IMG/VR virus record: IMGVR_UViG_3300027852_000009
Span: 1-45,729 of that record
Origin: a virus
Length of the DNA stretch: 45,729 bases
Direction: 5' to 3' (one strand)
Part shown: positions 31,193 through 35,230 of the stretch, in pieces
How positions within the stretch are numbered: position 1 is the first letter of the stretch
How the letters are laid out: each line of letters begins with the position of its first letter
The notes under the pieces: generated by a model
What the model was told of the DNA's origin: nothing
Seen by the model: the letters and a program-made list of their open reading frames with translations, nothing else
Databases searched by the model: none
Translations under genes and position numbers: made by a program

Positions 31193-31231
31193 TCGGATGA
31201 TACTCCTAGTGTGTCTAAGTATTGTCCCATC
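31193..31231 (-). promoter_or_regulatory. 39-bp repeat copy 1 (phage-RNAP promoter-like)
   Basis: Minus sense GATGGGACAATACTTAGACACACTAGGAGTATCATCCGA. Identical to 35192-35230. Lies 8 nt downstream of the RNAP stop. Confidence 0.5.
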
Positions 31232-31238
31232 GACTGCC

Positions 31239-32981
31239 TTATGAGAAGAAAAACTCACTTTTCAGTATGTCTTGGACATTAAAGAGGCCCAACTCAGGTG
31301 CATCAGGCATGGTTAGCCCACTGTAACGCTCAACACTCTCCTTCCAGACTGCAAGGTAATCATCGTCGTACATATCGACCATTGATTGACGAAGAATGTC
31401 ACGCATTGTGCCAACATGAGCGAAGGGACACCCAAAGCTATCATGGATCATGCTGAAGTCTCTGATTCCGATGTCGTGCATACGATTGACCGTGATCTGT
31501 AGGTGAGAGGCATCACAGGAATGGACAACATTTGGTGGCGCTGCTGTTGCCATCTTGCCTTTGTCGATCCCTACACGTCTGAGGAAGTCAACCTCTTCTT
31601 CACCCTCGTCTGGCTCCATGTAGACTAGGAACCGAGTGTCAAATGAGGTGATCCTTTTTGAGATAAGGTTCCGATAGGCTTGGGTGACCTTGGACCCAGC
31701 AGGAGTATCCCAGCACAGAGGTAGGTTGTTCTCTGCACACAGTGCAGCACATTCCATGAACCAAGCCTGTAGGGCCTTACCACGGTTCAGGGTCTTGTCC
31801 ACCGCCTCCAAGATCAAGTCCCTCATGTACTTAGCCTGATCCCACTTGTCTGGACCGGGTTCAACGTGCTTGTCTGCAATCATGAAGTCAGCAACACCAC
31901 GGGCTGTGACCCCATAAGGCACAGTCATGACAGACCGTTTGACCACCTTACGGCGTTTACTAGGGTCTGACATTTTGGCTGACCATTTAAGGGCCATAGG
32001 ATCATCATTGGCAGCGTCAATCTGTATCTGTTCCCAGACACGATCAGCAACTTCCATGTAGAGGTCTTCCCTTGGCCCTGTCATGCAATTGGTAGCCTTG
32101 GCTCCCACAAGGTCACAGGCCATGACACTCAGATGTTGCGCGCCATTGCATGAACCATCTAGGTTGCCGGGTAGGTGCGACATGAAGTCTTCAGGGTCAC
32201 CCAAACGCCAAGCAAAGACCCACTCATAAGCCACGGCTAGGAATTGGAATGGTTTGTCAGCCTTGAGCCATCCTCTGTTCTTCATTGGGTCATCCACCCA
32301 CGAACCAATCAATGCCAGGTTTTCAACTGCCCATTCCATACGCTCGTCAGGGTGTAGCTTATCCTCACCAAAGTGAGTGGCAACTGTGAACCCCATCCAG
32401 TAGACCCCTTCGGACCCCAGCCGGGTAGGCTTGGCAAACCTTAGGAGACCCTTGGCCAGATCACTTGATTGTGGTGTGAGGTCTGAGGGGATGGGATAGA
32501 TGCGTGTTCTGAAGTCCATGTTGTGGGGAAAATAGAACTTATCGAACTCCCACATCTCGCGGGCTGTTGATAGGATGCGTCTTGCAGACCGGGCCTCACC
32601 TAGTTGGGATTTGTAATCTTCATGGATGATTTGCTTGGCCTGCTTGTTGGCCTTCTTATCATCTGGTGACATCTCATCCCAGACCTCAGGGTCAAACCAA
32701 AGGTCTTGTAAGGCTGACGTGGTAGCTGGGTTGATAGGCTCATCCAACCTCAGGACAACCTCTCCATCATGTATGATGTCCATCTTACGATCAAGGAACT
32801 GATCTAGGATGTTGAGAATTTGGCCATTAACTGTCCAAGCTGTTTCTTGGACGTAGTTGACTGCGTTGACTGTGTAGTTTGAAATTTGGGTCATGTCGGT
32901 TGCCGTGTGGCCGCTGCCACCTACACCACGGACTAGGTTTTCGTTGTGGAGGAAGTAACCTCCTGAATATTGAACTGTCAT
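31239..32981 (-). CDS. T7-like RNA polymerase, large (catalytic) subunit
   Basis: SGGYFLHNENLV aligns with T7 GGGYWANGRRPL. MDFRTRIYPIPSDLTPQSSDLAKGLL is T/DxxGR. NLDGSCNGAQHLSVM is motif A. KRSVMTVPYGVT is motif B. MIHDSFGCPF is motif C. C-terminal DILKSEFFFS aligns with T7 DILESDFAFA. Confidence 0.95.
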   Translation of the reverse strand: MTVQYSGGYFLHNENLVRGVGGSGHTATDMTQISNYTVNAVNYVQETAWTVNGQILNILDQFLDRKMDIIHDGEVVLRLDEPINPATTSALQDLWFDPEVWDEMSPDDKKANKQAKQIIHEDYKSQLGEARSARRILSTAREMWEFDKFYFPHNMDFRTRIYPIPSDLTPQSSDLAKGLLRFAKPTRLGSEGVYWMGFTVATHFGEDKLHPDERMEWAVENLALIGSWVDDPMKNRGWLKADKPFQFLAVAYEWVFAWRLGDPEDFMSHLPGNLDGSCNGAQHLSVMACDLVGAKATNCMTGPREDLYMEVADRVWEQIQIDAANDDPMALKWSAKMSDPSKRRKVVKRSVMTVPYGVTARGVADFMIADKHVEPGPDKWDQAKYMRDLILEAVDKTLNRGKALQAWFMECAALCAENNLPLCWDTPAGSKVTQAYRNLISKRITSFDTRFLVYMEPDEGEEEVDFLRRVGIDKGKMATAAPPNVVHSCDASHLQITVNRMHDIGIRDFSMIHDSFGCPFAHVGTMRDILRQSMVDMYDDDYLAVWKESVERYSGLTMPDAPELGLFNVQDILKSEFFFS

Positions 32982-33007
32982 GATTTTCTACCACCGTTTT
33001 TTTTTCT

Positions 33008-33021
33008 TTGGATTAGTCTAA
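33008..33021. repeat. Element copy 17 (variant arm), at the RNAP split point
   Basis: TTGGATTAGTCTAA. Encodes L-D-stop of the small subunit. Followed (minus sense) by an A9 run (32997-33005) and the large-subunit ATG. Confidence 0.85.
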
Positions 33022-33865: not shown

Positions 33866-33943
33866 AGGACACCAAAAACGAGCGTGTCCCATAGCGTGTC
33901 CCCCTACATGTTGTGTTTAGTGTAGTGGGTGCTATACTAGCAG

Positions 33944-34089
33944 GTCAGTTAAGTTGTTGATTTTACGTTCTATGGACCTTGACGTTTCGCAGATACATAC
34001 CCTTGAACATGTCTGGTGCATATTTGGTGCGTGGTTTCAGTCTGACACGCCCACCATAAAAATACACCTAAAATCAACAACTTACTGAC
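33944..34089. repeat. Inverted repeat pair next to the integrase stop (attP-region candidate)
   Basis: GTCAGTTAAGTTGTTGATTTTA (33944-33965) against the reverse complement of TAAAATCAACAACTTACTGAC (34069-34089). 21/22 match with one indel and a ~103-bp spacer. Confidence 0.7.
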
Positions 34090-34097
34090 TATTTTCA

Positions 34098-35192
34098 TTA
34101 CCCCTTCATGTATGTTCTTTCCATACTGTGTCCCATAACGTGGCCCCCTCTTGAATTCAAGGCATCTTTGGCTTTGTTCAGTGTGGTAGAAACCTCATAT
34201 CGGGCATACTTCTGGGTCTGGGTGATTGAGGCATGTCCCAACAGTTGAGAGACCTCTCCCAGAGACAACCCATGCTTGAGGGCACGGGTAGCGTAGGTGT
34301 CCCGGCATGAGTGGATAGTGGCCTTTCCCTTTTCAGCTAATACACGGGCGCTGCTGGGGCAGCAGGTATGGATGCCTGTCCTCAGGTTCTTGATTGCCCT
34401 GCTCATGTTAGGGAATGGTTGGCTTTGATTGTGCAGCCGTTGTAGGACTTCCATAAGCCGGTCAGAGATAGGCACCATGACGTTCTTTTTGGTCTTGGTG
34501 TTGTAGTTGTCGATCACACCATCTGTCATGTTGATGTCGATCCACTCAACCTGTGTAGCTTCTTGCAGTCGAACCCCTGTGTCGATCAGAAAGATAAAGA
34601 GGTCGGAAGCCTTACGCCAGCCATCAGCACCATCACGTTGTGCCCTGCCTTCAAGATATGCCAGAATAGCCACTTCTTCGTCGTCAGATATGATCCGACT
34701 TTTTGAGAAGCCTTTCATCATCACAAAATCCAGATCAGCGTTTATCTTGTTCCGCTTACGTGAAAGATTGTTTGTCCTCTTCATGAATCGGATTTCAATG
34801 TTGATACTGTTGGCGGCAAAACCTTCAGCGTCACGATTGATCCGGTGGTCTTCCAGATCGTCGTCGTCCAATGTCGAGAGCATACGGTTAGGGTCTAGTG
34901 ACCATAGACCGTTAAAGGAGGGCTTGAGGCCCAGCAGTTTGTTCATACAGTTTTGATACATTTCCTGCGTCTTGCCTGTCACCGTCTTCACAGTGGCCTC
35001 ATAGGCGTCGTACAGGGTGATGTCAGGCTTCTCTCCGTGTTGTTTGATGTTCATCACACGCTCGTATTCCTTAGCCATGAACCGATTGGCTCCCGGTAGG
35101 TCGATGCGTCTGGTCGAGCCACGGTACTTCCTACCGTTCACTTTGAACTGGTATTGCAGGTACGGGCTATCTTCTCGTTTATAAACTTTCAT
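34098..35192 (-). CDS. int: Tyrosine recombinase / phage integrase
   Basis: TGVRLQEATQ (Arg), HSCRDTYATR (HxxR), LLGHASITQTQKYARY (His...Tyr nucleophile). Confidence 0.95.
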   Translation of the reverse strand: MKVYKREDSPYLQYQFKVNGRKYRGSTRRIDLPGANRFMAKEYERVMNIKQHGEKPDITLYDAYEATVKTVTGKTQEMYQNCMNKLLGLKPSFNGLWSLDPNRMLSTLDDDDLEDHRINRDAEGFAANSINIEIRFMKRTNNLSRKRNKINADLDFVMMKGFSKSRIISDDEEVAILAYLEGRAQRDGADGWRKASDLFIFLIDTGVRLQEATQVEWIDINMTDGVIDNYNTKTKKNVMVPISDRLMEVLQRLHNQSQPFPNMSRAIKNLRTGIHTCCPSSARVLAEKGKATIHSCRDTYATRALKHGLSLGEVSQLLGHASITQTQKYARYEVSTTLNKAKDALNSRGGHVMGHSMERTYMKG

Positions 35193-35230
35193 CGGATGAT
35201 ACTCCTAGTGTGTCTAAGTATTGTCCCATC
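35192..35230 (-). promoter_or_regulatory. 39-bp repeat copy 2 (phage-RNAP promoter-like), supplying the integrase SD
   Basis: Identical to 31193-31231. Its AGGAG lies 9 nt before the int ATG, and the repeat ends at the A of the ATG. Confidence 0.5.

Follow-up and report, generated by a model that had tools for sequence, protein, structure and literature searches.

A perfect 39-bp repeat around the integrase and two-gene RNA polymerase of a temperate T7-like roseobacter phage is probably a promoter for that polymerase

INTRODUCTION

Coliphage T7 places its class II promoters phi1.1A and phi1.1B directly after gene 1, with the early terminator TE downstream. Here we analyze repeated elements in IMG/VR virus record IMGVR_UViG_3300027852_000009 (positions 1 to 45,729; this whole stretch of 45,729 nucleotides [nt] is called the window herein), which is best explained as the genome of a temperate T7-like podophage of Rhodobacteraceae whose RNA polymerase (RNAP) is split over two genes (275 and 580 amino acids [aa]). 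A perfect 39-bp direct repeat, termed class A, brackets a tyrosine integrase gene (int) and both RNAP genes, and two related 30-bp elements, termed class B, lie on the opposite strand. From sequence comparison, we propose that the 39-bp repeat represents two copies of a promoter plus a short conserved leader, cognate to the phage's own two-gene RNAP, and we put the probability of this reading at roughly 0.78.

The class A copy that follows the RNAP genes resembles phi1.1A/B in being a phage-specific sequence of ~20 to 40 bp that lies directly 3′ of the RNAP gene, heads genes of DNA metabolism, occurs as a tandem pair in some relatives, has a GAC..CACTA-like core with a purine-rich start, and is followed by a hairpin and T-run comparable to TE. 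It differs from the T7 promoters in that its sequence is unrelated outside the core and the conserved, presumably transcribed leader is longer (~14 nt, up to ATCCG). Moreover, the window has four copies, a two-gene polymerase, and two divergent arms, in contrast to the single direction of transcription in T7.

Among temperate relatives, Pseudomonas phage LUZ100 has a phage-specific promoter (phi1) directly upstream of its RNAP gene, which was mapped by ONT-cappable-seq and for which a positive feedback loop was proposed (PMC10134795). LUZ100 and the window share an int gene beside the RNAP, a regulator gene 5′ of int, and a promoter placed for self-transcription of the RNAP; however, the promoter in the window is a predicted one and is located 5′ of int, with the phage attachment site (attP) before the RNAP genes, and the regulator is XRE-like rather than MarR-like. 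Temperate T7-like pelagiphages carry attP between int and the RNAP gene, and in HTVC019P-type pelagiphages and cyanophage P-SSP7, as in the phages described here, this arrangement is combined with bacterial attachment sites (attB) in tRNA genes and puts int and RNAP at opposite ends of the prophage (10.1101/410191). Their RNAP is encoded by a single gene, and the window RNAP is at most ~33% identical to any INPHARED phage RNAP, the level of its best matches there. To our knowledge, promoter repeats around int and RNAP have not been described for these phages.

Coliphage N4 has a heterodimeric T7-like RNAP II of two polypeptides and a virion RNAP, to which a large RNAP-like structural protein of the window may be compared. 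The window differs from N4 in that its catalytic subunit is far closer to the T7-type family, its genome is a 46-kb temperate one with T7-type replication genes, and its elements resemble duplex T7-type promoters and not the hairpin promoters of N4. Phage promoters after gene 1 are textbook knowledge for T7, and the int-attP-RNAP order is known from temperate T7-like phages; what is new is the phage lineage, one of roseobacters that has not been described before and whose RNAP is naturally split. Less expected details are that class B elements bracket an early gene in antisense orientation, an arrangement conserved between lineages, and that the order is promoter-int-attP-RNAP.

RESULTS

The 39-bp repeat and two related copies are intergenic and oriented

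Both copies of the 39-mer read in the minus sense and are identical at 39/39 positions, with a start-to-start spacing of 3,999 bp, which reproduces the original prediction for this DNA; the identity breaks off sharply at either edge of both copies. Copy A (P_A-int; positions 35192 to 35230) ends with the A of the int ATG (35192) and, as had also been noticed, provides the Shine-Dalgarno (SD) sequence of int, a GGAG located 9 nt 5′ of the ATG within the leader GGAGTATCATCCG. Copy B (P_A-rep; 31193 to 31231) begins 7 nt (and not 8 nt, as given earlier) past the stop codon (TAA, 31239 to 31241) of the gene for the catalytic subunit (RNAP-C). It heads a structured leader followed by the replication module, with genes for a gp2.5-like single-stranded DNA-binding protein, a T7-type primase-helicase, and a family A DNA polymerase on the minus strand. 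The segment between the copies was correctly described as holding int (34098 to 35192) and the genes for the N-terminal subunit (RNAP-N; 33013 to 33840) and RNAP-C (31239 to 32981), all on the minus strand; it also contains a 257-bp noncoding gap that had been left uninterpreted. The int product, a tyrosine integrase of 364 aa, matches PF00589 (E = 2e-17) and phrog_1. We infer that class A consists of a binding half, GATGGGACAATACTTAGACACA (~22 nt), the core CACTA, and the leader GGAGTATCATCCG, with which the transcript would begin.

The two class B 30-mers, B1 (39938 to 39967) and B2 (38756 to 38785), are identical to each other and lie on the plus strand, again as first reported. Of their first 22 positions, 21 agree with the 39-mer (the exception is an A>G change), and beyond position ~22, agreement needs a 1-nt gap. 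The initiation half of class B, CATAGTGATACA, is unlike that of class A: after ...GGACACA, class B continues with TAGTGATACA and class A with CTAGGAGTATC.

The 19-nt core GGGACAATACTTRGACACA has four matches in the window (≤3 mismatches), compared with 0.01 expected from shuffled sequences, and all four are intergenic. Degenerate searches of the window for more promoter copies returned these four and chance-level matches within open reading frames (ORFs; 14420 to 14435 and 14687). An exact 19-mer scan of IMG/VR gave two matches (L001 and L002), both inside a 533-aa ORF of unrelated contigs, which were discarded as chance. A contig from an independent JGI sample (L054) is 100% identical across 2,868 bp that include copy B; the repeat is therefore not an assembly artifact.

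Related phages keep the positions of class A but not its sequence

The comparison set consisted of eight related loci (L003 to L011) and additional metagenome loci (L012 to L026), oriented int > RNAP-N > RNAP-C. A repeated element of its own was found in each of six related lineages, whose RNAPs are 54 to 66% identical. Each lineage in which the region is present carries its own ~38-nt element at the positions seen in the window. An element ending exactly at the int start (...ATCCG followed directly by ATG) is found in L004, L007, L008, L009, L011, and prophage L033, and one or two copies beginning 0 to 30 nt past the RNAP-C stop codon are found in L003, L004, L007, L009, L010, L011, L012, L015, and L016. 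The post-RNAP copies are doubled in L004, L007, and L010, with tandem pairs spaced 70 to 112 nt; in L008, the post-RNAP copy comes after an inserted ORF, and L011 has an extra class A copy after the DNA polymerase gene. In split-RNAP lineages at just 31 to 46% identity, a repeated lineage-specific element likewise starts 0 to 12 nt after the stop codon.

At least 10 lineages thus retain the class A positions, each with a sequence of its own: the upstream ~15 nt differ between lineages, and the T7-like core, the purine-rich start, and the leader up to ATCCG are common to them. The leader (GGAG/GGAA... to ATCCG) is retained even where no ORF follows. Within one relative's genome, the int-proximal and post-RNAP copies differ at 2 to 6 of 24 positions, and function rather than recent duplication therefore explains why the copies are similar; the window, with its perfect identity, is at one extreme of this within-genome range.

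The original prediction had proposed promoters for one of the phage RNAPs, one of them directly after the RNAP gene, and had tied this to conservation of the repeats in related phages that retain the same RNAPs. Their positions are kept in these relatives, which strongly supports the proposal and makes the promoter reading of class A well supported by comparison. Among the scanned prophages that have int homologues, only L033 was informative; in L028 to L031 and L034 to L041, where the presence of a split RNAP was not checked, class A/B-like repeats 5′ of int were mostly not found.

The split T7-family RNAP is the likely reader of the elements

The upstream ~22 nt of class A in the window contain a T7/K11-like GAC..CACTA. 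The core reads GACACACTA (also written TAGACACACTA) followed by GGAG in the window, CGTACTCACTAGA followed by GG in L007 (in a longer form, ACTCACTAGA followed by GGAAG), and TTCGACCTTATAAA (also written CGACCTTATAAA) followed by GGAGGA in L011. The L007 core has 11/17 matches to T7 positions −17 to −1, and the window sequence, aligned by eye on CACTA, has about 11/17. Features of T7-group promoters are found together at these sites, namely, a repeated, intergenic, and oriented sequence, a T7-like core, a presumably cognate RNAP encoded by the same phage, and co-divergence at kept positions; class B shows the T7-like core and the purine-rich start only in part.

RNAP-C (580 aa; RNA_pol, PF00940, E = 8e-87) retains the specificity-loop region and aligns to T7 RNAP residues 318 to 882 (E = 5e-54), with the region from 739 to 770 covered. 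This span identifies it as a T7-family enzyme that is divided close to where the N-terminal domain meets the core. RNAP-N (275 aa) matches RPOL_N (PF14700, E = 4.5e-8) and phrog_414 (positions 8 to 246), and RNAP-C matches phrog_414 at 1e-152, versus 5e-42 for the N4-type phrog_2166. The earlier wording "one of the phage RNAPs" can thus be narrowed: the duplex T7-like core is in keeping with the split T7-like enzyme, in which the specificity-loop region is retained.

In T7 RNAP, N748 is a specificity determinant. The residue aligned to it in eight lineages is T, K, K, K, Q, R, N, and T, in a conserved context (YRN.I.KRI), and this variability is consistent with diverging promoter specificity, although covariation between specificity-loop residues and promoter bases was examined in only these eight lineages. 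A DNA search of INPHARED with the window found no similar phage, and a protein-pattern scan of IMG/VR with RNAP-C returned nothing. A large protein collection holds ~60 split RNAPs at 54 to 66% identity, some of them in contigs of ~42 to 47 kb and some in Rhodobacteraceae genomes.

Class B elements flank the first early gene on the opposite strand

Class B elements are present in six of six lineages (the window, L004, L007, L009, L011, and L033), in each case combining the 5′ half of the local class A with an altered 3′ half; in L011, class B is TGACCTATATTCGACCTTAT plus GGGGAAGG, and class A is TGACCTATATTCGACCTTAT plus AAAGGAGG. All six have two or three class B copies that lie opposite the early-gene strand, flank the first early ORF of ~280 to 310 aa, and are oriented toward the structural genes. 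In the window, this ORF encodes 290 aa (38999 to 39871, minus strand), has a Lys/Ala/Pro/Thr-rich N terminus and no family match, and is followed by its own intrinsic terminator (38961 to 38984, minus strand). B1 is located 67 nt upstream of its ATG on the opposite strand, and B2 is located 3′ of the ORF and antisense to it.

In T7-type promoters, the binding region is the upstream part. Since the part shared by both classes is always the 5′ one, class B most likely starts plus-strand transcription that runs antisense to the 290-aa gene and toward the structural genes, which occupy the plus strand from ~40510/40820 onward and form the second of two divergent arms. The original prediction had regarded the orientation of the variant copies as ambiguous; the argument from the shared 5′ half settles it, though not by measurement.

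The putative attP lies between the two class A copies

The gap between int and RNAP-N (33841 to 34097, minus strand) contains a 21-bp inverted repeat, AGTCAGTAAGTTGTTGATTTT / AAAATCAACAACTTAACTGAC, around a core beginning TGGTGGGCG. The layout of this gap is conserved (257 to 514 bp). In L003, L004, L007, L009, and L011, the gap carries the 3′ half of a tRNA in reverse-complement form (TGGTG...GAATCGAACC...), with the tRNA-like core flanked by a ~20-bp inverted repeat and tandem boxes. No tRNA fragment was detected in the gap core of the window by Rfam (only noise at the E-value threshold) or ARAGORN, and ARAGORN found no tRNA in the window or in free-phage relatives. In the Pseudogemmobacter (Xinfangfangia) prophage L010, the host-phage junction falls exactly at the tRNA-like core, ~200 bp upstream of RNAP-N; on the contig of L010 (L033), int is located ~44 kb from the RNAP, with a complete, oppositely oriented tRNA-Thr(TGT) behind it. 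Int precedes a full tRNA-Arg, -Lys, or -Val in other prophages of Ruegeria and Rhodobacteraceae. From these junctions and tRNA matches, attP can be placed between int and RNAP-N, within the repeat-bracketed segment.

This location bears on a second idea in the original prediction, in which the perfect repeats are recombination substrates or scars through which a 3,999-bp int-RNAP cassette was deleted, excised, or acquired. Direct repeats with 39/39 identity around int and both RNAP genes would be suited to such a role, and 39 bp suffices for occasional homologous deletion, but we consider it highly improbable. Because attP is inside the segment, integration would separate the two copies to opposite prophage ends, as seen for int and RNAP in L010/L033, instead of using them, and the repeats are thus not cassette boundaries; they coincide neither with the integrase recombination site nor with prophage-host junctions. 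No cassette-less relative with a single repeat copy was found among the fetched split-RNAP relatives (a limited sample), all of which keep int, gap, RNAP-N, and RNAP-C in this order together with both elements. The elements remain in place there with 2 to 6 mismatches per 24 nt, which points to selection at each site, and deletion between the repeats would take away the essential RNAP. Moreover, temperate T7-like phages have int-attP-RNAP as their ancestral order (10.1101/410191).

Copy B is followed by a structured leader

Downstream of copy B lies an ORF-free leader of ~290 nt (30905 to 31192, minus strand; fold z-score, −3.8), ending in a hairpin and T-run (30909 to 30928) that immediately precede a palindrome and the SD sequence of a small ORF; the position of this terminator-like structure is conserved in relatives. 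The leader holds a long irregular hairpin (GATAGGCTGGCC.../...GGTCGGCCTATC) and a tRNA-like module, in which GAGTGGGG/CCCCACTC form a closing stem of 8 bp and CTGGGTTCAAATCCCAG forms a T-arm. Compared with L003, 10 of the 59 pairs in the window have compensatory changes, which affect both the closing stem and the T-arm. Rfam gave no match at the gathering threshold across the window and only noise for the leader at the E-value threshold. By its covariation and folding score, the leader is a conserved structured RNA, one hairpin of which resembles a tRNA T-arm.

Could the 39-mer itself act as RNA, for instance, as a processing site, a 5′-stabilizing hairpin, or a translation signal, with transcription starting elsewhere by the host RNAP or a virion-associated RNAP-domain protein? 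The GGA-N6-7-TCC of its leader could fold into a small hairpin, the int SD sequence lies within copy A, and a different RNA-like palindrome is located 5′ of most genes. Conservation of the transcribed strand would then be expected; the best-conserved half within a genome is instead the upstream half, which is common to both classes and lacks convincing secondary structure. Class B is also antisense to the surrounding genes, and the T7-like core would be left unexplained. An RNA-level role is therefore improbable in our view.

Short tandem boxes are probably separate protein-binding sites

Tandem boxes with an 11-bp spacing, GGGGGACACGCTATGGGACACGCT, are located just upstream of the RNAP-N ribosome site (33882 to 33905, minus strand), and a second tandem pair, GGCCACGCTATGGGACACACTA, is located in the divergent control region (40178 to 40199, plus strand). 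Boxes of the form GACACRCTA are found at 33892 to 33900 (minus strand) and 40191 to 40199 (plus strand); the sequence is also written GGGACACGCTA. All relatives have counterparts, which are TGNCACACTAT-like (e.g., GGCACACTATTGACACAC), tandem with the same 11-bp spacing, and conserved where the promoters are unrelated. These boxes flank the attP core on either side in L003, L004, L007, L008, L009, L010, and L011 and are also present in the divergent control region; the equivalent inverted pair in L004 is at 2237 to 2262 and 8693 to 8718. The original prediction was right about the presence of short GGGACAC(A/G)CTA boxes, but their grouping with the promoter family does not hold, since they are conserved in relatives while the promoters diverge. 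The GGGACACRCTA boxes probably form a family apart, serving as operators or Int arm-type protein-binding sites, and their likeness to the promoter core of the window is probably coincidental; the XRE-like regulator or Int would most simply be the binder.

Another box, AGTATGGACCTACTAGAC-like, is located just upstream of the class A element of int (35247 to 35263, minus strand) and also at ~33919 to 33937 (minus strand). In L008, L009, L011, L028, L031, L033, L036, and L048, it is found upstream and downstream of int, with recurrences after int or on the attP arms, and it is a candidate Int arm-type or regulator site.

A related question is whether the shared ~22-nt element is itself a site for a phage DNA-binding protein, the XRE-like regulator or Int, with GGAG..ATCCG being a duplicated int 5′ untranslated region. 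An XRE/HTH_3-like regulator gene (35308 to 35649, minus strand), recognized from its translation and a weak precomputed PF01381 match of the same gene in L053, lies immediately 5′ of copy A. The elements are concentrated where lysogeny and the early genes are controlled, co-divergence is expected of an operator and its regulator just as of a promoter and its polymerase, and MarR sites have been proposed around the RNAP promoter in temperate T7-like phages (PMC10134795). Yet the element is nonpalindromic and strictly directional with respect to downstream genes, and it has a T7-like core and a purine-rich start. Its placement after the RNAP (often in tandem) and, in L011, after the DNA polymerase gene resembles that of phi1.1A/B and not that of operators, its leader is conserved without a following ORF, and operator-like positions are already held by the different, better conserved box family. 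We therefore regard a protein site as unlikely, if somewhat less so than an RNA-level role.

Additional genes and motifs

A structural-module ORF of 1,767 aa (662 to 5965, plus strand) contains an RNAP-like stretch at aa 1222 to 1476 (phrog_414, E = 4e-24) and has no Pfam match; it may encode a polymerase carried in the virion, here of a temperate T7-like phage with a genome of 46 kb. Among the early genes, a 167-aa ORF (37141 to 37644, minus strand) has a precomputed Pfam match to ArdA (anti-restriction) in the source contig annotation (L053).

The early strand carries a motif of its own, GTGGnGCGnTTGKGCCWTARTGGA, at 40104 to 40134 and 38620 to 38649 (both minus strand), one copy 5′ of the 290-aa ORF and one 5′ of the next early operon. 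Counterparts are present in L004 (2302 to 2330 and 3873 to 3901), L007 (3533 to 3561), L011 (4588 to 4616), and L033 (5634 to 5662 and 7541 to 7569). The motif is far better kept between lineages than class A or B, and the initiation half of class B is similar to its core, CCATAGTGGA. In a test for sigma-70 promoters, one copy only reached 9/12 (TTGCCT-17-CATAAT), and across lineages the −35 element is not conserved and the "spacer" is. The motif is a candidate early promoter that might be read by the host RNAP or the virion RNAP-domain protein.

A 14-nt palindrome, TTRGAYNNRTCYAA (TTRGAY-NN-RTCYAA), has 28 sites in the window versus 0.66 expected and is present in all fetched relatives. Examples are at 5985 to 5998, 10339 to 10352, 12989 to 13002, 30887 to 30900, 33852 to 33865, 37097 to 37110, 38530 to 38543, 40796 to 40809, and 43784 to 43797. 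Most sites lie directly 5′ of an SD sequence (AGGAG/GGGAG/TGGAG), with the start codon 8 to 13 nt farther on, and in many cases the palindrome extends into a stem in which the SD sequence would be base paired (CTCCCTTGGA..TCCAAAGGAG). Possible roles of the palindrome are in RNA processing, in the control of translation, or as a protein site.

The divergent region that separates the early arm from the structural arm contains a conserved tract rich in AT, AATAATCAATAATAACAATAACCC...TTTTTGAA (40320 to 40370, plus strand), with counterparts in L004 (2070 to 2110) and L007 (3300 to 3345); this tract is a candidate replication origin or genome terminus. Finally, reiterated short repeats of the CTAGGGG/CTAAGGGATAG type occupy noncoding DNA 3′ of the 290-aa ORF (38655 to 38700 and 38845 to 38990); their counterpart in L011 (3575 to 3629) consists of four tandem 11-mers, CCTAGGGGATA.

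DISCUSSION

Several observations weigh against reading the repeated elements as promoters of the split RNAP. Alignment to the T7 consensus needs a register shift of 0 to 2 nt that differs between lineages, the similarity to T7 is modest (7 to 11/17 in the scanned registers), and the specificity-loop alignment with T7 contains gaps and is unreliable in part. Class B has no CACTA core in its initiation half, and the opposite sense of that half holds TCACTAT, so the direction assigned to class B depends on the premise that the half common to both classes is the one that binds. There are only four copies in 45.7 kb, and each long arm would rely on one or two promoters; T7 carries 17. A lineage-specific DNA-binding regulator would likewise give co-diverging repeats, and the case as a whole is one of comparative sequence analysis.

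If the elements are promoters, early minus-strand transcription by the host RNAP or a virion-borne enzyme would pass through the small early genes, the regulator gene, int, and the RNAP genes. The split RNAP would bind copy A, start near the predicted +1, and transcribe int, then attP and its own genes, creating a positive feedback; no evident terminator was found on that strand between int and the RNAP genes, and the copy A transcript is therefore expected to run through attP into them. Starts at copy B would yield the ~290-nt structured leader and the replication module. Class B would drive the structural genes, with the distal copy running antisense across the 290-aa gene and perhaps shutting it off. 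In a lysogen, the promoter 5′ of int would face out into the tRNA, and the RNAP genes would be severed from it.

More tentatively, the elements might be ordered into a three-tier promoter system in a temperate T7/N4-like hybrid, leading from the early-strand motif to class A and then class B, a scheme that we find doubtful as a whole. Its first tier would begin early transcription at the early-strand motif, with the ejected RNAP-domain protein of 1,767 aa as a possible reader. The second would be a promoter-int-attP-RNAP feedback loop that integration cuts, leaving promoterless RNAP genes in the prophage, and in the third, class B pairs would silence the first early gene while driving the late genes.

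The promoter reading makes a conspicuous perfect repeat a regulatory element rather than a mobile-element boundary. It also yields, from at least six lineages, candidate orthogonal promoters to go with a T7-family RNAP that is split in nature; synthetic biology has a demand for split T7 RNAPs and for new pairs of RNAP and promoter as parts. For the uncharacterized roseobacter prophage group to which the window is related (Ruegeria, Pseudogemmobacter, and Paracoccus), the elements give an outline transcription map. If this map is true, integration at attP cuts the RNAP genes off from both the phage promoter and the early promoters 5′ of int, which would be a structural basis for the silence of the polymerase in the prophage.

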